From Limibacter armeniacum (GTDB lineage Bacteria; Bacteroidota; Bacteroidia; Cytophagales; Flammeovirgaceae): a stretch of 64,000 bases of DNA. Below the pieces are notes generated by a model. That model saw only the letters and a list, made by a program, of their open reading frames with translations, did no database searches and was not told the DNA's origin. Positions 15,053 through 41,318 of this stretch are shown here, in pieces. Position 1 is the first letter of the stretch. The number at the start of each line of letters is the position of its first letter. Location: assembly GCF_036880985.1 (NCBI RefSeq), contig NZ_JBAJNO010000008.1, positions 1,859,500-1,923,499 of the forward strand, written 5' to 3'. Position numbers and translations under genes: made by a program.

Positions 15053-15685
15053 AGTTGGCTATTTGATTTAAAGCACTTCAGTGGTTATAGGGTTCAGTAT
15101 TGGACAGGGATTTTGAATGTTACTTTGTCTGAATAGGATTTGTCTAAAAAATAGTATTTGGCATGTCTAGCAAATCTCCTGTAATACTTGATCCGCGAAA
15201 TCTGATTAATCTAGGTGTATATAATTCAACACAAACTGGATGGAAAGTGTGCGGTTAATTAATGTATTATAATGCAATTCGCATGATTAGGTACATTTTA
15301 CCTGCTTTGTGTCCAATGTGAGTATTGCTTGATGATATAGGTTTAATTGAGAGGTTTAGAACAGGTGACCTTGTATTCAATTTAGTTGATTTTGTGTAGG
15401 ATATGTATTTGCATCACAATATAGTTTTGCATTTTTTTTAGATTATCTCGTTAGCTGAAAGTTGAATTTGTATCATTTTAATATCAATCCATGACAGTTG
15501 GAGGTTTTGGCATTTTGAAACAAAATCAGGCTCGAGATAAGAATTTGATTAGAACTTGCGACATGTTTGCAATTACACTACATTTGTACTTATTGAAGCT
15601 CGCATTTCATTTAAATATTATTTTTAAAGGCTCTGCCTAAATTATTTATTCAGCTAAAATTGATTTGCTGATTGACTAGACGACA

Positions 15686-26510: not shown

Positions 26511-26892
26511 TGTAATATGGATTTGTGTGGATGATGTTTCGGCTGCAAAAGTAGAAGGTCAATGTATTATTAAGAAATCTAGAACAAATGTGGTAACAAT
26601 TATTAAATTATATTAATAAATTAAGTGTTTGTTGTACTTTTTAAATATTGTGTATCAAGAATTAGTATTTAAAGCAATTTACATTTAGTTTTACCTTGTA
26701 ATAATGCAATTCATAATTGAATCGCTTATCACAGAAATTCGTTGTTATACCTTAAAATTGATACTAAGATGCTGAAGACAAATTTATATATCCGACTGAA
26801 TGGCTACGCTCTTTTTGAGCAGTGCCTGCCTGCTGTGCAGCGGTGGTGATATTGTTTGTCTGAACGCGTATAGAAATATACCTTTCAATGCA

Positions 26893-26935
26893 AAAAGCCC
26901 TCATCTGCTACAGGCAGGTGAGGGCTTTTTGTATT
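26893..26935 (+). promoter_or_regulatory. Strong stem-loop plus T-run in the rtcB leader, with no upstream plus-strand gene to terminate. Possible attenuator, or the 3' end of a small RNA.
   Basis: AAAAGCCCTCA-tctgctacaggcagg-TGAGGGCTTTT followed by TGTATTT. It lies inside the spurious N-terminal extension of the rtcB ORF. Confidence 0.4.
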
Positions 26936-27004
26936 TGCATGTTTGCGAAAGGCAATACAAGCAAAACCCATAAAAGAATTGAATTAGAACAACAAGCTAT
27001 ATAT

Positions 27005-28414
27005 ATGGCAACGAATAAACTAAGAGGAAAGGAGCTTGAGAAGCTTGGTTTCCCAAAAGGAAGAGTAAGTACAATCATACTTGAAATATTTCAATCTAAA
27101 AGATTTAAAAAACACGATAAAGAAGAGAAACTTTCCATGCTTCAAGCCCTGATAGATAATCGGGAAGATTTTAGATACGATCCTGACTTTAGAAGGGTAG
27201 TGGAGGCAATGGAAGGCAAAACAGACAAAGGAGTTGAGTACGAACTGGAGGATAGGGAATTGCCTTGTCACATATTCGGAAAGGAAAACATTCAGGATGG
27301 CGCACTTCGCCAAATGAATGCTGCCATGAAATTGCCTATCACCGCTGAAGGTGCCCTGATGCCCGATGCCCATCAGGGTTATGGATTGCCTATCGGTGGT
27401 GTATTGGCTACTGAAAATGCAGTAATTCCTTATGGCGTCGGAGTGGATATTGGATGCAGAATGTGCTTATCAGTATATCCGATGGACGCTTCAATTCTGG
27501 AAGGGCAAAGAGGCAAGCTGCGAAATATACTGCTAGAAAATACCCGTTTTGGTAAGTCTGAATTTGAGTTGCCACTTGACCATGAGGTTCTTGAGCGGAA
27601 AGAGTTTCAAGAAATAGGAATCGTTCGCTCACTGAAAGACAAGGCATATTGTCAAATTGGGTCTTCTGGCGGAGGAAATCACTTTGTGGAATTTGGCATT
27701 ACCGAGATCTTGGATCCCGAAAATGAATTTGGAGTACCAGTCGGTAAGTACTTGGCAGTTCTGTCCCATTCAGGCTCAAGAGGACTAGGTGCTTATATCG
27801 CACAGCATTATACCCGAATCGCAATGGATGCTTGCCATTTACCTGGTGAAGCAAAGCATTTGGCATGGCTTGACCTAAATACTGAAGCGGGTCAAGAATA
27901 CTGGTTGGCGATGAACCTGGCAGGGGATTATGCTTCAGCGTGTCACCATCAGATACATTACAGGATCGGGAAGAAGTTGGGTGAGAAGCCGCTTTTCAAA
28001 GTTGAAAACCATCACAACTTCGCTTGGAAAGAGCAACTGGCAGACGGCAGAGAAGTCATTGTACACCGTAAAGGAGCAACACCCGCCAAGAAAGGAGAAT
28101 TGGGCGTAATACCTGGATCTATGACGCAGGCAGGGTTTATTGTTAGGGGAAGAGGTAATGCAGCATCCTTGAATTCTGCATCTCATGGAGCAGGTAGGTT
28201 ACTTTCAAGAACCATGGCTAAAAATACCATCTCACAGTCTGAAGTTAACAAGTTGTTGGATGAGCATGGAATCACTTTGATTGGAAGTGGACTGGATGAA
28301 GCTCCTCAAGCCTATAAGGATATCCGAACGGTAATGAGGGCACAGACAGATCTTGTGGATGTGATAGGGACTTTCAAACCTAAAATCGTCCGAATGAGTG
28401 ACGATGATAGATAA
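27005..28414 (+). CDS. rtcB: RNA-splicing ligase RtcB (the ORF track begins at 26888; the ATG at 27005, MATNKLRG..., is the likely start)
   Basis: RtcB metal and GMP-binding motifs (DAHQGYGLPIGGV, GVDIGCRM, GGGNHFVEFG, HSGSRGLG, HHNFAW, SHGAGR). Confidence 0.9.
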   Translation: MATNKLRGKELEKLGFPKGRVSTIILEIFQSKRFKKHDKEEKLSMLQALIDNREDFRYDPDFRRVVEAMEGKTDKGVEYELEDRELPCHIFGKENIQDGALRQMNAAMKLPITAEGALMPDAHQGYGLPIGGVLATENAVIPYGVGVDIGCRMCLSVYPMDASILEGQRGKLRNILLENTRFGKSEFELPLDHEVLERKEFQEIGIVRSLKDKAYCQIGSSGGGNHFVEFGITEILDPENEFGVPVGKYLAVLSHSGSRGLGAYIAQHYTRIAMDACHLPGEAKHLAWLDLNTEAGQEYWLAMNLAGDYASACHHQIHYRIGKKLGEKPLFKVENHHNFAWKEQLADGREVIVHRKGATPAKKGELGVIPGSMTQAGFIVRGRGNAASLNSASHGAGRLLSRTMAKNTISQSEVNKLLDEHGITLIGSGLDEAPQAYKDIRTVMRAQTDLVDVIGTFKPKIVRMSDDDR

Positions 28415-28429
28415 GTAAAGTATCAAAAT

Positions 28430-28470
28430 CAGCAGGTAGGAGATATATCCTACCTGCTGTAATATCGAAT
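28430..28470 (+). terminator. Terminator after rtcB
   Basis: CAGCAGGTAGG-agatatat-CCTACCTGCTG followed by an A/T-rich tract. Confidence 0.5.
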
Positions 28471-28581: not shown

Positions 28582-29409
28582 ATGGCTGAAAAAACGGTTT
28601 ATGGTCTTCCCCGCAAAAAGGAAGAAGTAATTTCTCTGTTACAGGAGGCATATGCATCCAACAATTTGGATGAAGCTGAATATGAAAAACGGCTTTCCAT
28701 GGCATATGAGTCCAAAAGTATTGAGGAGTTGAGAGAGGTCATTTACGATTTCCCTCAAAGGGATCGTTTTTTCCCTTTTCAGGAGCAATATGAACCAAAG
28801 CAGACCACATCTTATAGAGGTGTAAAGAGAAAGGAGGTAAACCTGTTTTCGGCACCGAATACACATTTCTCATTATTGGGTAATCAGTATGTGGATGGGC
28901 AGTCAATGGACGCAGGACCTTTGAATGTGATTACAGTACTTGGCGAGAACAACGTTAATTTGAAGAATGTAGCAGCTGAAAATAAACTGAAAGATGTTTA
29001 TATCTCATGCATTCTTGGAAACACTGTCATTGACCTTAGAAATTACAATTTTCAAGGTAGACTCATTGAGCTGGAATTAAAGTCTCTTATAGGGAATGTA
29101 ACGCTTCTGTTGCCTGAAGGTGTTAGGATTAAAAACAAAATGCTTCACCTAATCGGTAACATCAATCGGAGTGTAATAAAAAAGGGAATGAAATGGTTCA
29201 AGCGTCATCATGGAATGAAACTTCCCGTAAGCGATGAGGAAGCAACTGATAACCACTTTTATTGCGACTTTGAATTAAAGCTTAGAGGTTTTAGCCTGAT
29301 TGGGAATGTAGATATACTATATTTTGTAACAGGAGAGAATGCAGATCAAAATGGTCATGATTTTTTTGAAAATGACCCATTTAACCTACGGGATTTTAGA
29401 CGGAAATGA
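28582..29409 (+). CDS. DUF1707 N-terminal domain plus LiaF-like C-terminal beta-strand repeat domain (cell-envelope stress-associated family)
   Basis: N-terminal LLQEAYASNNLDEAEYEKRLSMAYESKSIEELREVIYDFP has the DUF1707 pattern. C-terminal repeats (VIDLRNYNFQG...LIGNVTLLLPEGVRI...LIGNI) resemble the LiaF C-domain. Confidence 0.5.
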   Translation: MAEKTVYGLPRKKEEVISLLQEAYASNNLDEAEYEKRLSMAYESKSIEELREVIYDFPQRDRFFPFQEQYEPKQTTSYRGVKRKEVNLFSAPNTHFSLLGNQYVDGQSMDAGPLNVITVLGENNVNLKNVAAENKLKDVYISCILGNTVIDLRNYNFQGRLIELELKSLIGNVTLLLPEGVRIKNKMLHLIGNINRSVIKKGMKWFKRHHGMKLPVSDEEATDNHFYCDFELKLRGFSLIGNVDILYFVTGENADQNGHDFFENDPFNLRDFRRK

Positions 29410-29413
29410 TCAT

Positions 29414-29773
29414 ATGGGGATGAATTTAACAGGTAGTTGGATCTACGAAGAAGACTTCGGATATGGAATGTCTCGAGGAGTGGCAGAACTAGTGCAGGTC
29501 GGCAATAAAATATCAGGCTCCATTCAGTTAAGAGAAGAAGTTGATGGGGAAGATCCTTTTACCGTTGTACAACAAATAGAAGGCTCTATACAAGATGATA
29601 GGGTAGTGATGGTTGGCGTCTCATATGAAGTAAAAGGTCAGCCTGAAAACTTTGAGTACTGTTTGGATAGCTGGGATGGTCAGTTAACGAATAAAGACCT
29701 GATTGTAGGGGAATCAGAGGATAGTGATGGTCTGATTGGAATATTTGTTTTTAAAAGACAAAAGCCAAAGTAA
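29414..29773 (+). CDS. Hypothetical protein. The ORF track starts it at 29339, overlapping the upstream gene; the ATG at 29414, 5 nt after the upstream stop, is the likely start.
   Basis: 119-aa ORF MGMNLTGSWIYEED... in the same frame as the 29339 ORF. The tight spacing suggests translational coupling. Confidence 0.3.
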   Translation: MGMNLTGSWIYEEDFGYGMSRGVAELVQVGNKISGSIQLREEVDGEDPFTVVQQIEGSIQDDRVVMVGVSYEVKGQPENFEYCLDSWDGQLTNKDLIVGESEDSDGLIGIFVFKRQKPK

Positions 29774-29932
29774 AATACTATCGTTTAGGTGATTACTGTA
29801 AATAATTGACTAAAGTCAATGAAAAAGTGAAACTTTAATTATTTTAACATCGTATTAAATATTATATCTCATTTAATTGTTGAGAATTATACAAACTGAA
29901 ACCAATTTTCGAAATACTAACATGCATATACT

Positions 29933-30553
29933 ATGGACTTTTTAATTGCAGCCCTTCAGCCTATAAATTTACCATATACCATCTTGATGGCGGTTGTTGC
30001 GCTATATTGGCTTAGTGTAATCATTGGCGTATTAGACTTTGATACCTTTGATATTGACCTAGATGCAGATGCAGATATTGAGGTGGATGGCGAAATAGGA
30101 GCGATGGCTCAAGTATTGCATTATTTCAATATCGGAGAATTGCCATTGATGATAATCTTCAGTTTTTGGTTCCTTTTTATGTGGGTAGGTTCAGTATTGA
30201 CAAATCACTATTTAGGAAATGATTCATGGTTAATAGCTGGAGCTATTTTGATTCCTAATGCCTTTGTTTCACTTATGCTTACCAAGTATGCAACAAAGCC
30301 ATTTCAGAAGGCTTTTTCACACTTGACAAAGGAAGAGGATACATCAGTAATTGGTAAAGAATGTAAATTGATTATACCTGCATCTTTAGATAAAAAAGGA
30401 CAGGCAGAAGTATATACATCAGGCTATCACCAAAGAGTATATGTGAAACCCTTGGATGACAAGAAATTGCAGAAAGGTGATACCGCTTTAATTATTGAAT
30501 TTGACGAGCAGCAGAAATGCTATCTGATAGAACCTTTAGCTACTTTAAACTAA
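29933..30553 (+). CDS. NfeD/YqiJ-like membrane protein (OB-fold partner of SPFH/flotillin proteins)
   Basis: Membrane N-terminal part with an acidic linker (DFDTFDIDLDADADIEVDGEIG), further TM helices and a C-terminal soluble beta-rich domain. It is encoded just upstream of a flotillin gene, as in yqiJ-yqiK and yuaF-floT. Confidence 0.55.
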   Translation: MDFLIAALQPINLPYTILMAVVALYWLSVIIGVLDFDTFDIDLDADADIEVDGEIGAMAQVLHYFNIGELPLMIIFSFWFLFMWVGSVLTNHYLGNDSWLIAGAILIPNAFVSLMLTKYATKPFQKAFSHLTKEEDTSVIGKECKLIIPASLDKKGQAEVYTSGYHQRVYVKPLDDKKLQKGDTALIIEFDEQQKCYLIEPLATLN

Positions 30554-30572
30554 CATTGATGACAGAAAGAAA

Positions 30573-30812
30573 ATGAAAGACCTTGTTTATATTACCAAAA
30601 GAATAAAATTAGAATTTGATAAAAATGACATTGCGATATCAAAAGTAGATATCGATGAAATGACAAAAGAGCTAGACGATGCTACTCGCTTAATCTTTAG
30701 GGAAAATGCAACGGTGAATGTTGAAGGTGGATATATTTATATTTCAATTCCTTATGAGGTGGCGGCAGATCTGAGTAGACTGAAAGACTTTTTCAAATTC
30801 GGAGCTAAATAA
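30573..30812 (+). CDS. Small hypothetical protein within the NfeD-flotillin operon
   Basis: 79-aa ORF, 20 nt after the NfeD stop and co-directional. Confidence 0.35.
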   Translation: MKDLVYITKRIKLEFDKNDIAISKVDIDEMTKELDDATRLIFRENATVNVEGGYIYISIPYEVAADLSRLKDFFKFGAK

Positions 30813-30919
30813 ATTTGTGACCGTTTTTTTAAATCACCATCAGTTAATACTGATACTTTTTTAAGAACACACTTTAACACTATAAGGATAAATCAATCTA
30901 AATCTTAAAATCAATTCTT

Positions 30920-33082
30920 ATGATCATTGAAGCAACAGCGATGATAGTGGGGGGTATTGCCCTCGTTTTGCTAGGCTTTTTGGCTATGATTGCCAAGTTC
31001 TACAAGAAGGTGCCGCAAGGTAAGGCTATTGTCAGAACAGGTATGGGTGGACTGAAAGTCTCATTCCAAGGAATTTTTGTAATTCCTGTTATTCACAAGT
31101 GTGAGATCATGGATATCTCACTGAAAAACATCGACATCAGTCGTGAAGGTAAGCAAGGGTTGATCTGTAAGGACAACATGCGTGCTGATATTCGTGTAGC
31201 CTTCTTCGTTAGGGTTAATAACGATCAAAAAGATGTGGCTGCAGTAGCACAAACGATTGGTTGTGAGCGTGCCTCTGAAATAGATCAGCTTAGAACACTG
31301 TTTGAAGCAAAGTTCTCAGAAGCTTTGAAGACAGCTGGTAAGCGTTTCGACTTTGTAGACCTTTACAGTGCAAGGGTAGAGTTCAAGCAAGAGGTGATTG
31401 ACATTATTGGTACTGACCTGAATGGTTATGTATTGGATGACTGTGCCATTGACTACTTGGAGCAAACAGACGTTGAGGAGCTTGATCCTGATAATATCTT
31501 GGATGCGGAAGGTATCAAGAAAATCACCGAGCTGACTGCTACTCAAAAAGTACAGGCAAACTTGGTGAAAAATGATGAAACCAAGCGTATCAAGAAACAG
31601 GACGTAGAAGGCCGTGAGGCTGTACTTGCTCTGGAAAGACAGCAGATTGAAGCAGAAGAAAAGCAGAAGCGTGAAATTGCAGAAGTAAGAGCACGTGAAG
31701 AGGCCTCTGCTGAGAAAATCAGACAAGAAGAAAGACTGAAGTCTGAGCAAGCGAAGATTCAGGTTGAAGAAGAGCTTGGTATTGCTGAAGAGAATAAGCG
31801 TCGCCAAGTATTGGTAGCGGAGAAAAGCAAGGAGAGAACGGAAGCGCTGGAAAACGAAAGAATCCACAAGGAACGTTCTTTGGCAGAAAACGAGCGTGAG
31901 CGCGTTGTAGAAATTGCTAGAATTGAGAAGGAAAGAGCAGTTGAGGAAGAGCGCAAGAACATTCAGGATGTAATCCGTGAGCGTGTATCAGTACAGAAAG
32001 CTGTAGTGATGGAAGAGGAGAAAATCAAGGATACACAGGCATTTGCTGAAGCTGAGCGTAAGAAAGCAGTTGCTATCAAGGAGGCGGAGCAGAAAGCTGA
32101 AGAGGCATTGGTAATGGAGCTGAAATCTGCTGAAGCAGCAAAAGAAGCAGCCAAGATGCAAGCGGAGAAACAACGTACCGAAGCTGCTGCTGAGTTTGAA
32201 ACAGCTAGCCAGAAAGCAGAGGCCTTGAAAATCATGGCTGAAGCGAAGTCTGCTGAAATTGCAGCACAAGGTATGGCTGAAGCACAAGTAACGGAAGCTA
32301 GAGCCTTGGCTAGAGAGAAAGAAGCATTTGCGGAGGCAAGAGCCATTGAGGCGGCTTCAGAAGCAGAAGCAAAAGGTATTGCGGCTAAATCTGAAGCACA
32401 GGCAGAAGGCAACAAGCTTCTGGGTGAAGCGGAAGCGGATGTGCTGAAGAAGAAAATGATCGCCGAAGCGGAAGGTATGGAAGTGAAAGCCAATGCCATC
32501 GAGATGGAAGGCAAGGCTGAAGCAGCTGTGCTGAAAGAGAAAGCCATGGTAGAGGCGCAGCGTATAGAGGCGGAAGCTGAGGCAATGAAGCACTTGGACG
32601 ACGAGACAAGAGCGCTGGAGCAGTTCAAGCTGAAGCTGAATATGGAAAAAGAAGTGGCGCTTGCAAGACTGGAAGTGCAGCGTGAAATGGCAAAAGCACA
32701 GGCTTCTGTGTTAGCTGAGGTTATGAAGTCTGCCAACATTGATATCGTAGGTGGTGAAGCGGCATTTATTGACCGTATCATGAACTCGATCACAATGGGT
32801 AAAAGTGTTGACCACTTCCTGAACAACAGTGAAACCCTGACTGAAGTGAAAGATAACCTGCTTTCAGGAGAGAACGGTAACCTGATTGAAAAAGTAAAGG
32901 GTTTTGTTCAGCAGTTCGGCCTGACTACTGAAGACATCAAAAACCTGAGCATAGCTTCCCTGTTGCACAAGCTGCAAGGTATGGCAGAGACTGCACAGCA
33001 AAAACAAACGCTGGAATCTGCGCATGAAAAAGCTAAAGCTATGGGACTGTCAGAAATGCTGATTTCCAACTGGATTAGATAG
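30920..33082 (+). CDS. Flotillin-family SPFH (band 7) protein with a long Ala/Glu/Lys-rich coiled-coil (EA-repeat) region; FloT/YqiK-like
   Basis: N-terminal TM hairpin, SPFH core (YKKVPQGKAIVRTGMGG...FVIPVIHKCEIMDISL...RADIRVAFFVRV), then ~450 aa of A/E/K/R coiled coil typical of flotillins. Confidence 0.85.
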   Translation: MIIEATAMIVGGIALVLLGFLAMIAKFYKKVPQGKAIVRTGMGGLKVSFQGIFVIPVIHKCEIMDISLKNIDISREGKQGLICKDNMRADIRVAFFVRVNNDQKDVAAVAQTIGCERASEIDQLRTLFEAKFSEALKTAGKRFDFVDLYSARVEFKQEVIDIIGTDLNGYVLDDCAIDYLEQTDVEELDPDNILDAEGIKKITELTATQKVQANLVKNDETKRIKKQDVEGREAVLALERQQIEAEEKQKREIAEVRAREEASAEKIRQEERLKSEQAKIQVEEELGIAEENKRRQVLVAEKSKERTEALENERIHKERSLAENERERVVEIARIEKERAVEEERKNIQDVIRERVSVQKAVVMEEEKIKDTQAFAEAERKKAVAIKEAEQKAEEALVMELKSAEAAKEAAKMQAEKQRTEAAAEFETASQKAEALKIMAEAKSAEIAAQGMAEAQVTEARALAREKEAFAEARAIEAASEAEAKGIAAKSEAQAEGNKLLGEAEADVLKKKMIAEAEGMEVKANAIEMEGKAEAAVLKEKAMVEAQRIEAEAEAMKHLDDETRALEQFKLKLNMEKEVALARLEVQREMAKAQASVLAEVMKSANIDIVGGEAAFIDRIMNSITMGKSVDHFLNNSETLTEVKDNLLSGENGNLIEKVKGFVQQFGLTTEDIKNLSIASLLHKLQGMAETAQQKQTLESAHEKAKAMGLSEMLISNWIR

Positions 33083-33094
33083 TAAAACAAAAAT

Positions 33095-33163
33095 GACTTC
33101 GGTGACTGAGCGAAGCCGAAGTCTTATTTCACCGCAGGTTGACCTGCCTGCGGTGATTTTTTT
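33095..33163 (+). terminator. Tandem stem-loops ending the flotillin operon; the second is a canonical rho-independent terminator
   Basis: GACTTCGG-...-CCGAAGTC, then CACCGCAGG-ttgacctg-CCTGCGGTG followed by ATTTTTTTAAC. Confidence 0.7.
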
Positions 33164-33192
33164 AACAAAATCTCAATCAAATAACCCTACCT

Positions 33193-33609
33193 ATGGAATC
33201 AATCTTACAACTTAAAAAAGGTGAAATCCATTTGAATGAAGAGGAAGTGGTGATTTTGGATAATGCCAAAAAGCTTAGAATCATGTCTTTGGTTAATTCT
33301 GTTTTGTTCATCATAATGTCTGTCTTGTTTTACCTAAAAGAACTGAAGGGAGAATCATATATGGTTTGGTTATGGGGAGTCATTGGTCTTGCCCATATTG
33401 GGATATTAGTGAACAAAATCTTTTTCATGACAACGGACAGTGTGTTATTCTTGAATGAGATTAATGCAGTGAAAAGACATCCAATAAGAGACGAAATACT
33501 CTATGTGTTCACTAAAGGCAGTCGAAAAAAAAGATGCATAAATGCAGAGCCTTCTATGATCGAAAACCTGAAAAACTACTTTAAGGAGAAAGGGATAAGC
33601 GTAAAATAA
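33193..33609 (+). CDS. Hypothetical two-TM membrane protein
   Basis: 138-aa ORF with two hydrophobic helices (IMSLVNSVLFIIMSVLFYL, VWLWGVIGLAHIGILV). Confidence 0.45.
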   Translation: MESILQLKKGEIHLNEEEVVILDNAKKLRIMSLVNSVLFIIMSVLFYLKELKGESYMVWLWGVIGLAHIGILVNKIFFMTTDSVLFLNEINAVKRHPIRDEILYVFTKGSRKKRCINAEPSMIENLKNYFKEKGISVK

Positions 33610-33620
33610 CCTAAAAGATA

Positions 33621-34040
33621 TGTACACCATACTACCCGTAAATCATGGAGAAATCCACTTGAATGAAGAGGAAGTGGTGATTTTGGATAATGCCAAAAGA
33701 TTAAAAACAATATCGCTCATAGGGTCTGCTATCTGGATCTTATTTTAAATTGGACTCTTGTTAAAAGGAGTGGAGACTTTTACAGAATATTCAACTTTCG
33801 TTGTCTGTACAAGCCCATTGCATGTAATGATGTTGACCTATAATCTTCTATTTGTGAGAAATGACAATGTATTGTTTTTGAGTGATATCAAAGAAGTGCG
33901 TAAACATCGGTTTAAATGAAAATTCATTGAGTGTCTTATTCAAGGCAAGCAGGAAGAGACGAAGGGTTAATGCAAATAAAGAAGAAGTGAATAAGTTAAA
34001 AGAATACTTTCAGCATAAAGGAACTAAGGTGAACTAATAG
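33621..34040 (+). pseudogene. Decayed tandem paralogue of the 33193-33609 gene, with multiple frameshifts and stops
   Basis: Bases 33650-33698 are near-identical to 33224-33272 (GAAATCCA(t/c)TTGAATGAAGAGGAAGTGGTGATTTTGGATAATGCCAAAA). Homologous peptide pieces are recovered only by switching frame three times (...ISLIGSAIWILF*, ...NDNVLFLSDIKEVRKHRFK*, ...NANKEEVNKLKEYFQHKGTKVN*). Confidence 0.55.
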
Positions 34041-34099
34041 CTTGATTACCTTAAACCAAGAATATCAAAAATCTAAATTCTAGTTGTATTGGTCAGTAA

Positions 34100-34210
34100 A
34101 CTTGTAGGATCACGCCTGCGGCGTGTTCTCACGAACCACAGGCACATGTTATGTGGTGTTTCGCAAGATCAGGGCGTAGCCGCGGACGGCTAGTTCTAAC
34201 CCTACATGTC
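34100..34210 (+). ncRNA. GC-rich multi-hairpin element, a candidate structured RNA (cis-regulatory leader or small RNA); no confident family assignment
   Basis: Closing pairing TGTAGG...CCTACA encloses three hairpins: CACGCC-tgc-GGCGTG, ACCACA-ggcacatgtta-TGTGGT and TAGCCG-cgga-CGGCTA. It is about 55% GC in an AT-rich intergenic region, directly upstream of the 1644-aa gene. Confidence 0.3.
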
Positions 34211-34256
34211 TGTTAACTATTACATCTAGTATCTAGCTTCTAAAAATAAATTACCT

Positions 34257-37200
34257 ATGTCAACAATAGATACGGCGGAAGAAACCAAAAAAGAAACACA
34301 ACTGGACAGCGGAACCTATGAGATTCTTCGCAAGCGATTAGGGTCGCAGGCAGAAGAGCTACAGTCCCGACTGAATAAGCTGAACAGCGCAAGAAAGGAG
34401 ATTTTCGGAGCCTTGGATGCACGTTTGCTGGCAACCGACCGTATCTCGACAGACAATAACTGCGTGCCGAGGGATATGGTACCTGTACTGGAAAACCTCT
34501 TTATCTTCGGTTACAACGTTCATATTGGACTTAAGAAGGAAGCTGCACTGAGTGATGTTTTCAGTGTTTACGCTTACAATAGCACAGATCATTCCTTTCA
34601 TCCTAAAGATTTGAATATCCTTCATGATAAGACATTTGAGAAGGAGTTCAAGGAATTGTATCAGTATTACCGTGATACAGTTTTTGTAAAGTTTTTTGTA
34701 AAGGACAATTTCCTGTACATGATCTTCCGTGTCGGCAAGAATGTAACCGACATCAAAGCCTTCAAATGGCTGATTGAAGAGAATGGGCTGAAATATATAG
34801 ATAATAGAAGTGACCATGAGGTACAGTATCCACGTCAGCATGAGTTTGAGTGGAAGCGTGCTTCAAGAGATGATCACCGCACAGGAGAACACCCGCATGT
34901 GTCCATTATGGATAGGGTATTTGTGGAAACGGTAGGTGGTGACCTGACTATTAAGATTGAGGATAATACTTCAACGGGAGAGGGAATCTATGCGGAAGAG
35001 GTGGAAATTGCTGATCAGACACTGGACGATGCAGAAATCTATTATGCTGATCTGGGTAATCTGATTCTTCTGAAAATGAGACCATTTCAGGAGAAAAAAT
35101 GGCGCTTTATCGTATTCAACGACAAGATAAAGGAAGCTCGCCGAATTGATGCCATTGAAGATTCATGCGTGTTGCTGCCTGATGATCAGGGCATCATTGT
35201 GTCCAATGGTTATTACCTTCAGACGGGTGAGTACAAGCATTTTGATAGCGAGCTTACTGGGTTAAAATTTGAACGTCGTATCCACTCTCCAAATGGGGAG
35301 GACACAATGTATGTGTTCTATCAGCGAGAGCTGGGCGAATATATTCTGCTTTCCTACAATGTGATCGAGAAGCAGGTGGAAAGCCCGATTGCCTGTCATG
35401 GTTATTCCTTCTTCAAAAGTGGTGAACTGGTTTACTTCAAGACTGATGATGAACCGAAGAAGATTCACGGCTTGCAGGTTTGGCAAACACCGTATGTGCA
35501 CCCTGATTTTGTGCAGGCACCTGCACATGCTGATTCCTTCCTGTATAAGGTGGGGAACAAGGACATTGTAAGGGCAATGTCAGATTGTTATGCAGTACTG
35601 AATCTTTGCCGAAAGGAAGATTCTTACGAAGGTTTGTATGCAGATTTGTCAAGGTCTGCGATGGCGGTAACGGACAATTACTACTGGGTAGGTAATGAGG
35701 AAGCATTTGAGCTTTCGGACACACTTAGTGAAATTCGCTTGACAGCTTCTACGGCAATCGAAGAGTTTGAGAAAGTGGCAAGACAGCGTAAGCATGCTGC
35801 CGAACAAACCAAGCTGATTTCAGAGAAAGCAGATGAGCTGCTGAAAGAAGTCGATCGTCGTATCTTCCAGCATGTGGACGAGTTTGTCCGTTTCCTAGCC
35901 GAACTGAGAACGGTAAGGGGAGAAGTGATTTCCCTGAAAGAAGTACGCTATGTGGACCTTTCACTGGTTGATCACTATGAAACGGCATTGGCTGAGAAAT
36001 CCGATAAGCTTTCTGCCAAGTGTGTAGAGTTCCTGCTTCGTGATGACGCCTTGCTACCTTATGTAGAAAAGGTGGAAGCTGTACAGGAAGAAGCAGAAGC
36101 AGTGGAGAAAGTGACGGTAGCCGATGAAGTGGCGGAAGGAATTGCCAAAATTGGCAGTGAGCTGGAGTTACTGATCGATATCGTCTCCAATCTGAAAATT
36201 GAGGATGCGACCCAGACAACACAAATTATTGACCTGATCTCTGATATTTATGCAAGGCTGAACAATGTGAAAGCCAAGCTAAAGGCAAGGAGAAAAGAAC
36301 TGTTGGGAGCGGAAGCCATTGCGGAGTTCAATGCACAGTTGAAACTGATCAATCAGGCAGTTGTCAACTATCTGGATGTTTCAGATACACCACAGAAATG
36401 TGAGGAATACCTGACTAAGCTGATGGTTCAGATGGAAGAGCTGGAAGGCAAGTTCTCGGACTTTGATGAGTTCTTGGGCGAACTGACAGCCAAGCGTGAT
36501 GAAATCTATTCTGCATTTGAAACCCGCAAGACGCAACTTCAGGAGGAGCGAAACAAGCGTGCCATGTCGGTTCAGTCGGCAGCGGAGCGTATCCTGAAAG
36601 GAATCCGCAACAAGCTGAAATCCATCAAGGAGATCAACGAGATCAATTCCTACTTTGCTTCTGACCTAATGGTGGACAAGGTGCGTGACATGATCAAGAA
36701 GCTCCATGAGATTGAGGATGCGCCTAAGGCAGAAGACCTGCAAAGTCAGCTCAAGACCCTGAAGGAAGATGCTGTACGTCAGTTAAAAGACCGTCAGGAT
36801 CTGTTTGTAGGAGGTGACAATGTCATCAAGATGGGACGTCACCATTTTGCGGTCAATACACAGGAATTGGATGCTTCATTGGTATTGAAGGATGATGGAT
36901 TCTTTTACCATTTGGCAGGAACTCAGTTCTATGAGAAAGTGATCAATGAGCAACTGGAGCAAACCCGTGAGGTGTGGCAACAGTCTGTGATTTCAGAAAA
37001 TAAAACGGTTTACCGTGGCGAGTATTTGGCTTATCAGCTATTCAGGGCAATTGAAAACGGTGCTGCCAATACTACATTTAATGAGTTTCAGGAAAAGGAT
37101 GATACTGAAAGGCTCGAAGTGGTACAAGCATTTATGGCATCCCGTTACCATGAAGGTTATACCAAAGGGGTGCACGACAAGGATGCCTTGCTGATACTGG

Positions 37201-39191
37201 AGGCCTTGGTGCTGATGCGCATGAATATTGGCTTGCTCCGTTACAGCCCAGATGCAAGGGCTACAGCAGCCCTGTTTTGGTCAGAAGGCATGGAAAAGGC
37301 AGATAAGCAGCAGCTTGAAAACCGCATCAAGGGCATGTCCCTGATCTTGCAGGTATTCCCTGATTCCAAAGAATACCAATCACTGATTGAGGATTTGGAA
37401 GAGGATATGACCGTCTTTGCCAAAAGCTTGACTTCAGCCCTTCAGTCAACAGCAAAGGAAGCAGCGGCTTATCTGTTCCACGAATTGGCAACCGATACAG
37501 ATTTTATCGCAAGTAAGGAAGCCACACAACTGTGCAAGCAGTTCCTGCAGCATATCGAGATGAAACGGGTACAGCGAGACTATGAGGAAACAAAAAGAAA
37601 ACTGAAAGAAACCGACCTTTTGCACCGACTGGAATGGGAATTGGGTTGGCTGAATGCTTTTGCTTCCACCTTGCCTGAAGAAGAGCAAACGGTTTACGCC
37701 GATTACCTGTCAGAAGCCGCCGTGATTTTGTTGCTTGATGACCTGAACAGCCGAAAGGTTTCCCAATTGTCCGTCAAGCAGGAACTGAAAGGGCTGGCAG
37801 GAGATCATGCAGTCATTACGCAAAGCCAATATCAGTTTGATTACAATGCCTTGATGGAAAAGCTTCAGTCATTCGAAGCCATTCAGGTGCCGAAGTTTGA
37901 GGCATTTATCAATCTGAAGAAAGAAATTGCAGCAGACTTCAAAGCCAAGGTCAAGCTGGACAGCTTTAAGCCGAGAGTGCTTTCCTCCTTTGTCCGCAAC
38001 AAGCTGATCGATGATGTGTACCTGCCATTGGTCGGGGATAACCTTGCCAAGCAGATGGGTACCGTCGGGGAAAACAAACGTACCGACCTGATGGGCTTGC
38101 TTTTGCTGGTTTCGCCTCCGGGTTATGGTAAAACCACCCTGATGGAATATATCGCCAGCCGATTGGGACTGATCTTTATGAAAATCAACGGTCCTGCCAT
38201 CGGGCATCAGGTTACTTCGCTGGATCCTTCGGAAGCACCGAATGCGACCGCAAGGGAAGAATTAGAGAAACTGAACCTCTCCTTCGAGATGGGCGACAAT
38301 GTCATGATCTACCTGGATGATATTCAGCACTGCCACCCTGAACTGCTGCAGAAGTTTATCTCACTTTGTGACGGTCAGCGTAAGATCGAAGGGGTGTACA
38401 AGGGCGTAACCAAAACCTACGATTTCCGAGGAAAGAAAGTCTGTGTCGTGATGGCAGGTAACCCGTACACCGAAAGCGGTGATAAATTCCAGATTCCGGA
38501 CATGCTGGCAAACAGGGCAGATACCTACAACCTCGGTGAGATTATCGGTGATTCGGCTGAGGCATTCAAGCTGAGTTATATTGAAAACTCCCTGACCTCA
38601 AACCCTGTCCTGAACAAGCTGACAAGTAAAAGCAAAAAGGATATCTATACGCTGATCAATATCGCCAAGACAGGCAACAGGGAAGGAGCTGAGTTTGAAT
38701 CCAATATCTCAGGAGAGGAAGTCAATGAGTTTGTGTCGGTGCTTGAAAAGATGCTGAAAGTGCAGGAAGTGGTGCTGCAGGTCAATCAGCAATACGTGCG
38801 TTCGGCAGCGCAGGAAGACGCTTACCGTACAGAACCGCCATTCAAGATGCAAGGATCTTACCGTAACATGAATAAGCTGGCAGAGAAGATTGTCCCAATC
38901 ATGAATACACAGGAACTGGATACACTGATCCTTTCCCATTATGAAGGAGAATCACAGACCTTGACCACAGGAGCTGAAGCCAATATGCTGAAGTTTAAGT
39001 CACTTGTAGGTTGGCAGTCAAATGAGGAAAACCAACGTTGGGATGTTATCTGTCAGACATTCAAGAAGAACAACCAGCTGAAAGGTTTTGGTGACAATAA
39101 CCAGATGGCACAGGTACTGGCACAGATGTCTGCATTTACGGATGGGCTGGAAGCGATTAAGAAAGCATTGGAAAACGGATTAAAAAACTAA
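34257..39191 (+). CDS. Giant 1644-aa protein with a dynein-related AAA+ ATPase domain (AAA_5/MoxR-like) near the C-terminus; N-terminal 1250 aa are uncharacterised beta-rich and long helical/coiled-coil regions
   Basis: Walker A (LLLVSPPGYGKTTLMEY), Walker B (VMIYLDDIQHCHPE), the AAA_5-type motif (VCVVMAGNPYTESGDKFQIPDMLANRAD), and long heptad-like helical stretches between residues ~480 and 1250. Confidence 0.7.
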   Translation: MSTIDTAEETKKETQLDSGTYEILRKRLGSQAEELQSRLNKLNSARKEIFGALDARLLATDRISTDNNCVPRDMVPVLENLFIFGYNVHIGLKKEAALSDVFSVYAYNSTDHSFHPKDLNILHDKTFEKEFKELYQYYRDTVFVKFFVKDNFLYMIFRVGKNVTDIKAFKWLIEENGLKYIDNRSDHEVQYPRQHEFEWKRASRDDHRTGEHPHVSIMDRVFVETVGGDLTIKIEDNTSTGEGIYAEEVEIADQTLDDAEIYYADLGNLILLKMRPFQEKKWRFIVFNDKIKEARRIDAIEDSCVLLPDDQGIIVSNGYYLQTGEYKHFDSELTGLKFERRIHSPNGEDTMYVFYQRELGEYILLSYNVIEKQVESPIACHGYSFFKSGELVYFKTDDEPKKIHGLQVWQTPYVHPDFVQAPAHADSFLYKVGNKDIVRAMSDCYAVLNLCRKEDSYEGLYADLSRSAMAVTDNYYWVGNEEAFELSDTLSEIRLTASTAIEEFEKVARQRKHAAEQTKLISEKADELLKEVDRRIFQHVDEFVRFLAELRTVRGEVISLKEVRYVDLSLVDHYETALAEKSDKLSAKCVEFLLRDDALLPYVEKVEAVQEEAEAVEKVTVADEVAEGIAKIGSELELLIDIVSNLKIEDATQTTQIIDLISDIYARLNNVKAKLKARRKELLGAEAIAEFNAQLKLINQAVVNYLDVSDTPQKCEEYLTKLMVQMEELEGKFSDFDEFLGELTAKRDEIYSAFETRKTQLQEERNKRAMSVQSAAERILKGIRNKLKSIKEINEINSYFASDLMVDKVRDMIKKLHEIEDAPKAEDLQSQLKTLKEDAVRQLKDRQDLFVGGDNVIKMGRHHFAVNTQELDASLVLKDDGFFYHLAGTQFYEKVINEQLEQTREVWQQSVISENKTVYRGEYLAYQLFRAIENGAANTTFNEFQEKDDTERLEVVQAFMASRYHEGYTKGVHDKDALLILEALVLMRMNIGLLRYSPDARATAALFWSEGMEKADKQQLENRIKGMSLILQVFPDSKEYQSLIEDLEEDMTVFAKSLTSALQSTAKEAAAYLFHELATDTDFIASKEATQLCKQFLQHIEMKRVQRDYEETKRKLKETDLLHRLEWELGWLNAFASTLPEEEQTVYADYLSEAAVILLLDDLNSRKVSQLSVKQELKGLAGDHAVITQSQYQFDYNALMEKLQSFEAIQVPKFEAFINLKKEIAADFKAKVKLDSFKPRVLSSFVRNKLIDDVYLPLVGDNLAKQMGTVGENKRTDLMGLLLLVSPPGYGKTTLMEYIASRLGLIFMKINGPAIGHQVTSLDPSEAPNATAREELEKLNLSFEMGDNVMIYLDDIQHCHPELLQKFISLCDGQRKIEGVYKGVTKTYDFRGKKVCVVMAGNPYTESGDKFQIPDMLANRADTYNLGEIIGDSAEAFKLSYIENSLTSNPVLNKLTSKSKKDIYTLINIAKTGNREGAEFESNISGEEVNEFVSVLEKMLKVQEVVLQVNQQYVRSAAQEDAYRTEPPFKMQGSYRNMNKLAEKIVPIMNTQELDTLILSHYEGESQTLTTGAEANMLKFKSLVGWQSNEENQRWDVICQTFKKNNQLKGFGDNNQMAQVLAQMSAFTDGLEAIKKALENGLKN

Positions 39192-39247
39192 TCAGACATT
39201 GTTCTGATAGCAGGAAATATATTATCAATCATTAAAACTAAATAGAA

Positions 39248-39622
39248 ATGGACAAGGAAAGGTTATATGACGCATTCGGAGAGCTGTTGTATGCAGTAGC
39301 TTTGGCTGATGGAATGATCCAACCAGAAGAAATCAATAAAATTGAGCAAGTGTTGGCTAATCATTCTTGGGGTAGGGAAATCGAGTGGTCATTCAACTAT
39401 GAAAAAAACAAGAACAATGACCCAAAGCAAGTGTATGAAAAAGCACTTGACACATTGAAACAACATGGGCCTGATCCTGAGTATACATTCCTGATTGAGA
39501 TTTTGGAAGAAGTAGCAAGAGCAAGTGACGGAATTGACGAATCAGAAGACAAGGTGATTTCAGATATGCAGTCATCACTCAAAATGCACTTTATTCAGCA
39601 GGTAGAAGATATGAAGCTGTAA
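39248..39622 (+). CDS. TerB-family (tellurite-resistance TerB-like) small protein
   Basis: LYDAFGELLYAVALADGMIQPEEINKIEQVL is the TerB N-terminal helix-pair signature. It lies 57 nt after the giant ATPase gene and shares its terminator. Confidence 0.65.
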   Translation: MDKERLYDAFGELLYAVALADGMIQPEEINKIEQVLANHSWGREIEWSFNYEKNKNNDPKQVYEKALDTLKQHGPDPEYTFLIEILEEVARASDGIDESEDKVISDMQSSLKMHFIQQVEDMKL

Positions 39623-39642
39623 TTATTCTCTTTGGTAAGAAA

Positions 39643-39674
39643 AATGGGTACCTTCAAAAGGTACCCATTTTTTA
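39643..39674. terminator. Bidirectional terminator
   Basis: AATGGGTACC-ttcaaaa-GGTACCCATT followed by TTTTTATT. Confidence 0.75.
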
Positions 39675-39677
39675 TTA

Positions 39678-41318
39678 CTAATTGATGTCACTATACGTTA
39701 TGTTTAAAGCATTCAGAATTTCATCGGCTGGAATAATAAAAGTAATTCCTTCTACGCCTTGCCCCACAACTTTGGCATCAATGACACCAATAACTTTACC
39801 ATTATAGATTAATGGACCACCGCTATTCCCAGGGCTTATACTTACATCGGATTGCAAGAATGTTTTTTCCTCAATAGTACGTTTTCCACTGATCATACCT
39901 TTTGAAAGTGTCTGACCTAACGTGATATCAGCAGGAGTGCCAATTGCGATCACAGAAGTTCCTAATTTTACATCATCAGTAGAAATAGGAAGAGGTTTGA
40001 TTACATGATCTATTTTTAAAAGAGCTAAATCTCTTTGTGCATTATAATTAATCAATTTAGCTTCTAGTTTTTGGTCGTTGGAAAGGATGACTTCTAGAGA
40101 ATCCACATCTTCAATTACATGGTAATTAGTGATGATATAACCATCTTCACTGATAGCGAAACCACTACCATGACCTGCTTCTGTATTGACTGTGACAACA
40201 GAATTTACTAAGTCTTCAAACTCTTCTGATATAGGAATGTTTTTTTGTATAGTAATTTTCTGCTCTAAGCTTGTTTCAACACTTTTGTTAGTTAATTCAT
40301 AAAGCTCTGAAGATGTATTTAAAAATTCATGAAAGTTTTGGCTGAATACATTCTCAAAAACACTTCTGATATCTGTAGAAATATTAAACCCTTTGGTACT
40401 AATTTTTTTCTCCATTAGAGTGTTATTAGTTCTTCTCAGTTTTACTTTCCAAATAACTTCAATATTGGATTGAATTGGATATATATCAGCATTGGCATAT
40501 TTTGTAGTTACACTATTGAAGAATTTAGTTACTTCTGCAGTAATGATATACCTTGGTAGCTTTAATGGAGTGAGTGTATTTTTTGATTCAAAATCCGGTA
40601 CTTGAAAGTTTAAATCTTCTAATGACTCATTCACTGCTTTCTCTAATTCAAAATCCTTGAATTGTATGTCTTTTTCCCAATCAATAGTTCTACTATAGCT
40701 GTTATAAGTGATTTTACCAGCTTTTTCCCCCTCTTTCAAATTAATATTGACTTCACTGCAGAATATCAAATCTGTTACATCTTCAACCTTTTTATTTTTT
40801 TTGTAAATCGGTAATGTTAATTCTGAAGACAGATAATCATAAGCCTTTTTATTCGAAGTGATTATATCAATAACGAATGGAAGAGAGAAGCCTATGGCGT
40901 AACTAGAAAGTGCCATTGTAGGGTTTTCATCGTCAATATTGAGTGCTAAGCCTAAACCACCTGGTCCGGTGAGTACGCTCCCTAACCAGGTATTTCCCAA
41001 AGTTGAAGTTGCACGGGTTCTATGTGTAGGAACTTCTATAGTAGTTGTCTCATAACCTTCTTTTGCTAAGGATATATGTAATGGGGCTTCATGCCTTTCA
41101 ACTTTTACCTTCAGTGGCGTTTCACCTACATATTCATGATCAATATAGACCTTAGCGTTAGGTTCATTAGATTTAACTTGTATTTTCTGTTTATGCCCTA
41201 ACATAATTGTATGGCATCCAGTTAAAAAAAGTAGAGGAATCAATAAAAAAGTTATAAATCTCATTTTTTGAATTTTAATTGAATGATAAAAAGGCTTCGT
41301 CAACATGAAGAGCCTCAT
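39678..41318 (-). CDS. Lipoprotein with a PEGA-like domain and a C-terminal trypsin-like (S1) serine peptidase domain; no PDZ domain
   Basis: Lipobox (LFLTGC), PEGA-like KVYIDHEYVGETPLKVKV, catalytic triad contexts (TNYHVIED; DLALLKID; GNSGGPLI). Confidence 0.75.
   Translation of the reverse strand: MRLFMLTKPFYHSIKIQKMRFITFLLIPLLFLTGCHTIMLGHKQKIQVKSNEPNAKVYIDHEYVGETPLKVKVERHEAPLHISLAKEGYETTTIEVPTHRTRATSTLGNTWLGSVLTGPGGLGLALNIDDENPTMALSSYAIGFSLPFVIDIITSNKKAYDYLSSELTLPIYKKNKKVEDVTDLIFCSEVNINLKEGEKAGKITYNSYSRTIDWEKDIQFKDFELEKAVNESLEDLNFQVPDFESKNTLTPLKLPRYIITAEVTKFFNSVTTKYANADIYPIQSNIEVIWKVKLRRTNNTLMEKKISTKGFNISTDIRSVFENVFSQNFHEFLNTSSELYELTNKSVETSLEQKITIQKNIPISEEFEDLVNSVVTVNTEAGHGSGFAISEDGYIITNYHVIEDVDSLEVILSNDQKLEAKLINYNAQRDLALLKIDHVIKPLPISTDDVKLGTSVIAIGTPADITLGQTLSKGMISGKRTIEEKTFLQSDVSISPGNSGGPLIYNGKVIGVIDAKVVGQGVEGITFIIPADEILNALNITYSDIN

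Follow-up and report, generated by a model that had tools for sequence, protein, structure and literature searches.

What unites eleven kilobases of genes that all lie on one strand and whose products include a flotillin, an ATPase of 1644 amino acids (aa) and a TerB-family protein? The question is raised by a 64,000-nucleotide stretch of the Limibacter armeniacum genome (contig NZ_JBAJNO010000008.1, positions 1,859,500 to 1,923,499), hereafter referred to as the window and numbered from its first letter. An initial annotation, made from the letters of the window, read this 11-kb block as one system in which a giant ATPase and a TerB protein extend the NfeD-flotillin pair, and suggested a role in envelope stress or phage defence. 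Comparison with related loci leads us to a smaller unit. On this comparative evidence, the real conserved system consists of three genes, encoding a YqiJ-like membrane protein, a flotillin and the giant ATPase, and the remaining genes of the block are local passengers. The best explanation we can offer for the trio, to which we assign a probability of about 0.6, is a membrane-stress module that remodels a flotillin scaffold, PspA or client proteins. The three core genes are as follows:

29933..30553, plus strand: YqiJ/YuaF-type, NfeD-like membrane protein with three transmembrane segments and a YqiJ_N match; core component 1
30920..33082, plus strand: flotillin-like protein, 720 aa, with an N-terminal transmembrane segment, an SPFH/Band_7 domain, an EA-rich coiled coil and a C-terminal domain; core component 2
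34257..39191, plus strand: giant ATPase, 1644 aa, soluble; core component 3

The eight plus-strand open reading frames (ORFs) of the block are identical to the NCBI models V6R21_13810 to 13845 of Limibacter armeniacum, and all plus-strand ORFs listed in the initial annotation stand with their coordinates.

Three genes are kept together across phyla

We fetched 80 loci that encode relatives of the ATPase (51-61% identical over their best aligned segment). They come from Bacteroidota, Planctomycetota and Myxococcota and from one alphaproteobacterial metagenome-assembled genome. Every protein of the window was compared with these loci, and all neighbouring ORFs were clustered. The total sample comprises about 90 loci and is biased towards relatives that are at least 35% identical.

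Flotillin lies 5' of the ATPase gene, on the same strand, in 60 of the 63 loci whose upstream DNA extends for at least 2.5 kb, and a YqiJ-like gene lies 5' on the same strand in 56 of the 59 loci where it extends for at least 6 kb. The two closest relatives, from Algivirga pacifica (67%) and Sediminitomix flava (63%), show exactly the YqiJ-like, flotillin and ATPase genes in a row. Flotillin is also found directly 5' of the ATPase gene in all seven distant relatives taken from a plasmid collection (38-42% identity), namely those of Pseudomonas fluorescens pQBR103, Proteus, Vibrio, Halomonas, Streptomyces, Nonomuraea and Deinococcus. The initial view that a giant ATPase extends the flotillin pair is thus borne out, with flotillin upstream in 60/63 and 9/9 loci. 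Taken together, order and orientation are held in 69 of 72 loci from Bacteroidota, Planctomycetota, Myxococcota, Pseudomonadota, Actinomycetota and Deinococcota, plasmids included, and the genes surrounding the core differ completely from locus to locus. The core proteins are 52-67% identical across phyla. Gene order kept over such distances amid changed surroundings normally implies functional coupling. The linkage that the initial annotation had envisaged for the ATPase family therefore exists with flotillin and the YqiJ-like gene and not with the TerB family of the window.

Searches with the N-terminal 700 aa of the ATPase returned 967 clusters (at 50% identity) at E≤0.001, of which 301 were matched at E≤1e-30. 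When the Streptomyces ATPase was used as query, 120 of the 120 matches listed came from Streptomyces and represented many species.

A fourth gene recurs in part of the sample. In 24 of 58 loci, PspA (5.5e-41) is encoded directly 5' of the YqiJ-like gene, in most cases accompanied by a CesT_Tir_1/YbjN gene (4e-54) and a divergently oriented helix-turn-helix (HTH) regulator; on pQBR103 the order reads YjfI-PspA-...-SPFH-ATPase.

Genes of the PLD/HKD family were seen at some loci as well, directly 3' of the ATPase gene in Vibrio campbellii (L099:13858-14517) and, in several Bacteroidota loci, close to the HTH regulator (for example L006:3277-3969, minus strand). PLD-family linkage has been remarked for some Proteobacteria (PMC11237479).

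The giant ATPase combines a beta-propeller, a helical arm and a MoxR-type module

In NCBI, an entry from Limibacter armeniacum called 'DNA repair ATPase' matches the 1644-aa protein at 100% identity. An AAA_5 domain had been considered its sole recognisable part. Pfam searches contradict this: DUF3686 covers aa 34-476 (4e-194) and DUF7902 covers aa 597-681 (5e-28), and at aa 1282-1405 the AAA model (PF00004, 5.5e-7) scores slightly above AAA_5 (6e-5).

AlphaFold2 models were derived from a 24-sequence alignment in two halves, aa 1-850 and aa 800-1644, with a mean predicted local distance difference test score (pLDDT) of 83.4 and 80.8, respectively. The predicted architecture starts with an N-terminal helix and a beta-propeller (about aa 56-410, within DUF3686), continues with about 800 aa of helical bundles that include DUF7902 and, after an alpha/beta AAA+ module of MoxR type (about aa 1270-1470), ends in a helical C-terminus. 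Foldseek matched the strand-rich domain to WD40 and other beta-propellers (best 9e-7), and also to IFT-A and the clathrin heavy chain, which share the propeller-plus-helical layout, with low template modelling scores (TM-scores). The closest folds of the predicted ATPase module are the MoxR ATPases CbbQ and NorQ. The guess of a dynein-type ATPase was accordingly correct at the structural level, the module being of the MoxR/dynein type.

From Bacteroidota through to Streptomyces, the motifs SPPGYGKT, LDDIQH and AGNPYTESG..F.IPDMLANRAD show little or no variation; more specifically, the Walker A (SPPGYGKT), sensor-1 and arginine motifs are invariant in the aligned ATPases. Walker B (LDDIQH, window positions 38094-38111, aa 1280-1285) shows D-D for the usual D-E in 24 of 24 sequences. 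Members of the MoxR family such as CbbQ, NorQ and RavA measure about 270-500 aa and come with a VWA-domain partner, whereas the giant ATPase has no VWA gene beside it, carries its module behind a propeller and helical arm of 1250 aa, and has the D-D form of Walker B.

The upstream core genes encode a YqiJ-like protein and a flotillin

The product of 29933-30553 matches YqiJ_N at 9.1e-5, right at the Pfam cut-off, and has three predicted transmembrane segments. Among the 34 members of its family, 19 match YqiJ_N (best 3.6e-8) and none matches the Pfam NfeD model at E≤0.01, YqiJ_N being the only one of the two to be matched; the family profile retrieved no relative from the Protein Data Bank (PDB). 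Because the NfeD model is unmatched, the label 'NfeD-like' draws on the relationship to YqiJ only. The earlier description as an NfeD/YqiJ-like protein is thus upheld for the YqiJ_N match and the three transmembrane segments, and not for the C-terminal OB-fold domain of NfeD, which was not detected.

Searches with the full-length 720-aa flotillin found no Pfam match even at E≤10 and no PDB relative by sequence, either as a single query or as a 29-sequence profile. Scanned alone, aa 1-240 match Band_7/SPFH at 7.1e-15 (aa 30-189, 55.9 bits versus a cut-off of 23.6), and the full-length failure is therefore probably due to the EA-rich coiled coil. The protein further has a transmembrane segment at aa 7-25, a long EA-rich helical region and a conserved C-terminal domain, and is 50-60% identical to its counterparts in 28 aligned loci. 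Its first assignment as a flotillin is confirmed by the N-terminal transmembrane segment and the Band_7 domain, and agrees with the NCBI name 'flotillin family protein'.

Two antisense ORFs of 183 and 287 aa lie within the flotillin gene (31316-32826, minus strand), in the EA-rich region, where both GC skew and AT skew are strong. Codon composition most likely produced these ORFs as artefacts, and they are probably not genes.

The pair itself resembles yqiJ-yqiK of E. coli and yuaF-floT of B. subtilis, in which a YqiJ_N-type protein with three transmembrane segments likewise precedes a flotillin with N-terminal transmembrane segment, SPFH domain and coiled coil. Those two operons end after the flotillin gene, whereas here the giant ATPase (1644 aa in the window) follows in 69 of 72 loci.

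The remaining genes of the block are local

Five further genes and one decayed copy lie between or around the core genes:

28582..29409, plus strand: DUF1707 and LiaF_C protein (Pfam), 275 aa, soluble; lineage-specific
29414..29773, plus strand: hypothetical protein of 119 aa, NCBI V6R21_13815, starting 4 nucleotides (nt) past the preceding stop; lineage-specific
30573..30812, plus strand: hypothetical protein of 79 aa, between the YqiJ-like and flotillin genes; lineage-specific
33193..33609, plus strand: protein with two transmembrane segments (two-TM protein), 138 aa, local cargo in the slot between the flotillin and ATPase genes
33645..34040, plus strand: decayed tandem duplicate of the two-TM gene, with stops and a frameshift
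39248..39622, plus strand: TerB-family protein, 124 aa, soluble, a local addition

The LiaF-like gene, the small ORFs and the two-TM gene had been counted as parts of the system. Among the loci compared they are specific to Limibacter, which argues against this. Even at E≤10, phmmer retrieved no homologue of the LiaF-like, 79-aa or two-TM protein from the 80 loci, the 119-aa ORF has no tblastn match there (compared only via an overlapping 144-aa reading), and these genes were not found in Algivirga pacifica or Sediminitomix flava. Neither small ORF matches Pfam, and the two-TM protein has no Pfam match over threshold.

The LiaF-like protein combines DUF1707 (SHOCT-like, 6.8e-8) with LiaF-like_C (Toastrack, 1.3e-8) in Pfam searches. 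It shares the C-terminal LiaF_C/Toastrack domain with LiaF, the cell-envelope stress regulator of B. subtilis, but differs from it in having a DUF1707/SHOCT-like N-terminus without N-terminal transmembrane helices (no transmembrane segment is predicted) and in a score below the cut-off of NCBIfam LiaF_C_term (31.7 bits against 57). LiaF_C was found in one of the 29 upstream genes scanned, namely that of the window itself. This Toastrack/SHOCT protein holds the position that PspA-type partners occupy elsewhere, and it may be a local stress-sensing adaptor.

The two-TM gene was originally described together with a decayed tandem copy, and the alignment confirms this: the two share an exact block of about 50 nt, and the copy persists as ORF fragments at 33758-33919 and 33882-34037. 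Both lie between the flotillin and ATPase genes (33157-34256 in the window), a gap that is a slot with variable cargo. Many of its occupants at other loci are conflict or mobile-element genes, including DUF559 (six times), DMP19 (three times), IS200 transposase (twice), Imm33, a zeta toxin and an AAA_21/ABC ATPase (examples at L066:9536-9955, L043:3590-4784 and L036:7029-9890). The two-TM gene and its dead copy are such cargo.

The product of 39248-39622 does match TerB (Pfam, 1.1e-7), as first annotated, and its family comprises 28 proteins. It does not hold as a part of the system, since it is unlinked to it elsewhere. No member of this TerB family was found in the 80 loci (phmmer at E≤10 and a TerB-family profile) or in the two closest relatives. 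We examined the contexts of seven homologues (45-60% identity). In one, the sequence breaks off 71 nt before the gene; the other six have readable upstream DNA, and neither an ATPase nor a flotillin gene lies beside them. Their neighbours encode endonuclease V, ornithine cyclodeaminase, a MurF-Alr fusion with fumarase, acetyl-CoA carboxylase and a glycosyltransferase. A second TerB-like family of about 135 aa, with partial Pfam TerB matches (5e-6 to 6e-7) and unrelated in sequence to the TerB protein of the window, is encoded directly 3' of the ATPase gene in four Bacteroidota loci (L047:10773-11180, L058:14904-15311, L052:15318-15725, and L034:15022-15417 and 15440-15901). TerB-domain proteins may have a loose recurrent association with the ATPase, but as a minority feature of 5 of 72 loci including the window. 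Judged by this distribution, the TerB protein, the small ORFs and the two-TM gene are not components of the conserved system.

Predicted terminators divide the block

Folding of the block and its borders gave the following elements:

28430..28459, no strand assigned: left-border hairpin after the RtcB stop codon, a perfect 12-bp palindrome; -22.9 kcal/mol, z = -7.9
33095..33156, plus strand: two tandem GC-rich hairpins after the flotillin gene, the second (33129-33156) followed by T7; -35.9 kcal/mol, z = -6.9
34085..34215, plus strand: GC-rich leader 5' of the ATPase gene; a structured element is not supported
39640..39676, no strand assigned: bidirectional terminator hairpin, A5-GGGTACC ... 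GGTACCC-T6; -26.1 kcal/mol, z = -8.0

Strong hairpins are thus predicted at 28430-28459, 33129-33156 and 39640-39676. The outer two had been read as convergent terminators that delimit the block. Both hairpins are real, but they are not convergent, because the left one follows the co-directional RtcB gene, and its T-run on the plus strand is weak. The right one sits between TerB and a convergent gene at 39678-41318. The middle hairpin, which lies with its T7 tail directly past the flotillin stop, resembles an intrinsic terminator, and the block therefore probably comprises more than one transcript. More specifically, this hairpin speaks for separate transcription of the flotillin and ATPase genes in the window. 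With a predicted terminator after flotillin and local genes that are not conserved, the notion of the 11-kb block as one unit is not sustained.

We propose that the Limibacter locus is probably read as several units. The LiaF-like gene and the 119-aa ORF would form one; the YqiJ-like gene, the 79-aa ORF and the flotillin gene, ending at the middle terminator, another; the two-TM gene a third; and the ATPase and TerB genes, ending at the right terminator, a fourth. TerB is probably co-transcribed with the ATPase gene, because it starts 56 nt past the ATPase stop and the hairpin comes only after it.

The GC-rich leader had been described as a multi-hairpin element. This is not supported: its fold has a z of -1.4, with 19 of 200 shuffles equally good, Rfam gave no match, and the element occurs just once in the window. 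The Bacteroidota-type promoter pattern TTTG-N17-21-TAnnTTTG is absent from the block, and a sigma-70 promoter scan of the block stayed at chance level.

The trio belongs to a described operon class

The combination had been thought not to map to any named system. An operon with these genes has, however, been listed by Ravi et al., 2024 (mSystems, PMC11237479), who describe a CesT/Tir-PspA pair, a YqiJ/YuaF protein with three transmembrane segments, a Band-7/flotillin and a 'beta-propeller + coiled-coil + AAA+ ATPase' as a PSP-associated operon. The description is purely computational and leaves the class unnamed. Abbreviated operons without PspA are widespread according to these authors, and in their exemplar (Dokdonia donghaensis ANH61663.1) Toastrack proteins lie directly upstream; the word 'TerB' occurs 0 times in the paper (PMC11237479). 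The window agrees with this class in its three core genes, their order, the architecture of the ATPase and the Toastrack protein upstream. It differs in having no CesT/Tir-PspA pair and no HTH regulator, and in adding the 119-aa, 79-aa, two-TM and TerB genes, which the paper does not mention. Because core genes, order and ATPase architecture agree, we take the window to be a further member of this operon class, in the abbreviated form without CesT-PspA.

Two other assemblies offer functional analogies. In HflK/HflC-FtsH, an SPFH cage encloses an AAA+ protein, and scaffold and ATPase are likewise paired at the inner membrane. FtsH is a membrane-anchored protease of the classical AAA clade, whereas the giant ATPase is soluble, of MoxR type, three times larger and without a protease domain. 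Vps4, which acts with ESCRT-III, offers a second parallel, as the giant ATPase is genomically coupled to PspA (PspA-IM30, of the ESCRT-III superfamily) in 24 of 58 loci, and a Vps4/ESCRT-III working analogy has been proposed (PMC11237479). Vps4 differs in being a classical-clade AAA protein and in its MIT domain, which was not detected in the giant ATPase; the window, moreover, has no PspA.

A candidate membrane-stress module

Bacterial flotillins have no agreed mechanism and no established ATP-consuming partner. An ATPase of 1600-1900 aa tied to the flotillin/YqiJ pair in at least six phyla, a link previously noted in one paragraph of a comparative-genomics paper (PMC11237479), would be a candidate for such a partner. 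Solved SPFH complexes form membrane cages, according to the structures cited in PMC13086221. By analogy, we hypothesize that the flotillin, anchored by its transmembrane segment, and its YqiJ-like partner would build a large SPFH assembly, shaped as a cage or dome, against the inner membrane on its cytoplasmic side. The soluble giant protein would oligomerise via its MoxR-type AAA+ module, and its propeller and long helical arms would contact the cage or its clients. Under envelope stress, ATP would then drive the assembly, remodelling or dismantling of the flotillin scaffold, of PspA polymers or of proteins bound to them, in a manner likened to Vps4 acting on ESCRT-III, FtsH inside HflK/C, or CbbQ and NorQ acting on their partner complexes. 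Cage formation, contact between ATPase and flotillin, and the remodelling activity are all parts that we infer. If the motor does act on flotillin or PspA assemblies, it would give a handle on the turnover of SPFH scaffolds and correct a widespread annotation.

A more far-reaching version, which we regard as doubtful, makes the trio a widespread ATP-driven membrane-scaffold machine, in which the motor would build, reshape or strip flotillin cages or PspA at damaged membrane, and TerB-like and Toastrack/SHOCT add-ons would serve as lineage-specific adaptors. In a weaker variant, the conflict-type genes of the slot point to a role in inter-genomic conflict.

Several observations weigh against a membrane-stress module of this kind. 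No match to a VWA partner was found among the block proteins or the neighbours scanned. The D-D form of Walker B suggests that ATP hydrolysis may be slow or switch-like, because it replaces the usual D-E. Homologues of PspA, CesT and the HTH regulator are absent from the 64-kb window (tblastn, with queries from related loci). Our literature search found no paper on DUF3686/PF12458 or 'DNA repair ATPase' together with flotillin, and nothing relevant on flotillin with MoxR. Furthermore, synteny is no proof of physical interaction, and the ATPase occurs without an upstream flotillin in three loci (L001, L039 and L044). The spacing between the flotillin and ATPase genes ranges from 88 to 3136 bp, and 35 of 60 loci hold 400-3100 bp of unrelated plus-strand genes there; together with the terminator between the two genes in the window, this cargo indicates that co-transcription is not obligatory.

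The inserted cargo, the terminator and the three loci without flotillin also speak for another explanation, in which the ATPase and flotillin would be neighbours by inheritance only, with the ATPase acting elsewhere, for example on a cytoplasmic complex as CbbQ and NorQ do. E. coli-type yqiJK operons exist without the giant ATPase, in line with the wording 'in some cases' of PMC11237479, and fit this explanation too. We nevertheless consider it unlikely, since order and orientation are kept in 69 of 72 loci over six phyla and on plasmids while the flanks differ completely. The reading of the whole 11-kb block, with TerB and the LiaF-like protein, as one flotillin-microdomain NTPase machine for phage defence or conflict appears quite improbable. 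It would draw on the two unrelated TerB families found directly 3' of the ATPase gene (in the window and in L034, L047, L052 and L058), on the gathering of conflict-type genes in the slot (DUF559, DMP19, Imm33, zeta toxin, IS200) and on the PLD-family gene linked in some loci. Set against these are the TerB family of the window, found in unrelated contexts in 6 of 6 readable cases and absent from the related loci; the LiaF-like gene, small ORFs and two-TM gene, peculiar to the Limibacter locus; and the internal terminator that divides the block. PADLOC-DB v2 found no defence-system match for the eight block proteins, apart from a marginal one of TerB to Cmr5 (E 0.0056) that we treated as noise, and the N-terminal 700 aa of the ATPase have no phage homologue. 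Finally, a core with 52-67% identity across phyla, which occurs in numerous species throughout whole genera, is in keeping with a housekeeping or stress function rather than a patchy defence island. The phage defence idea is therefore not borne out, and for the window we conclude that only the three core genes belong together and that the TerB/defence idea should be dropped.

The name 'DNA repair ATPase', finally, would make the 1644-aa protein a repair enzyme whose adjacency to flotillin is incidental. The Pfam description of DUF3686 as 'ATPase involved in DNA repair' agrees with the NCBI name, and there are weak RuvB_N matches (4.6e-4). These are confined to the P-loop, the sequence matches to p97 and RuvB spanning just about 40 residues around Walker A. 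Domain searches found no nuclease, helicase or DNA-binding domain in the protein, its nearest folds are CbbQ and NorQ, its conserved neighbours are membrane proteins and PspA, and no paper was found that supports the name. We hold this explanation to be very improbable; since domain content, fold, neighbours and literature give 'DNA repair' no support, the NCBI name and the Pfam description look like a propagated mis-annotation.

Genes flanking the block

An RtcB RNA ligase is encoded directly 5' of the block (26888-28414, plus strand; 508 aa, with about 140 additional N-terminal residues). An SPFH gene is embedded in the rtc locus of P. aeruginosa (PMC13086221). We rejected RtcB as a member of the block, as it lies nearby in 1 of the 80 related loci (L055). 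Further 3' in the window, a plus-strand ORF of 2755 aa extends from 50689 to 58956.

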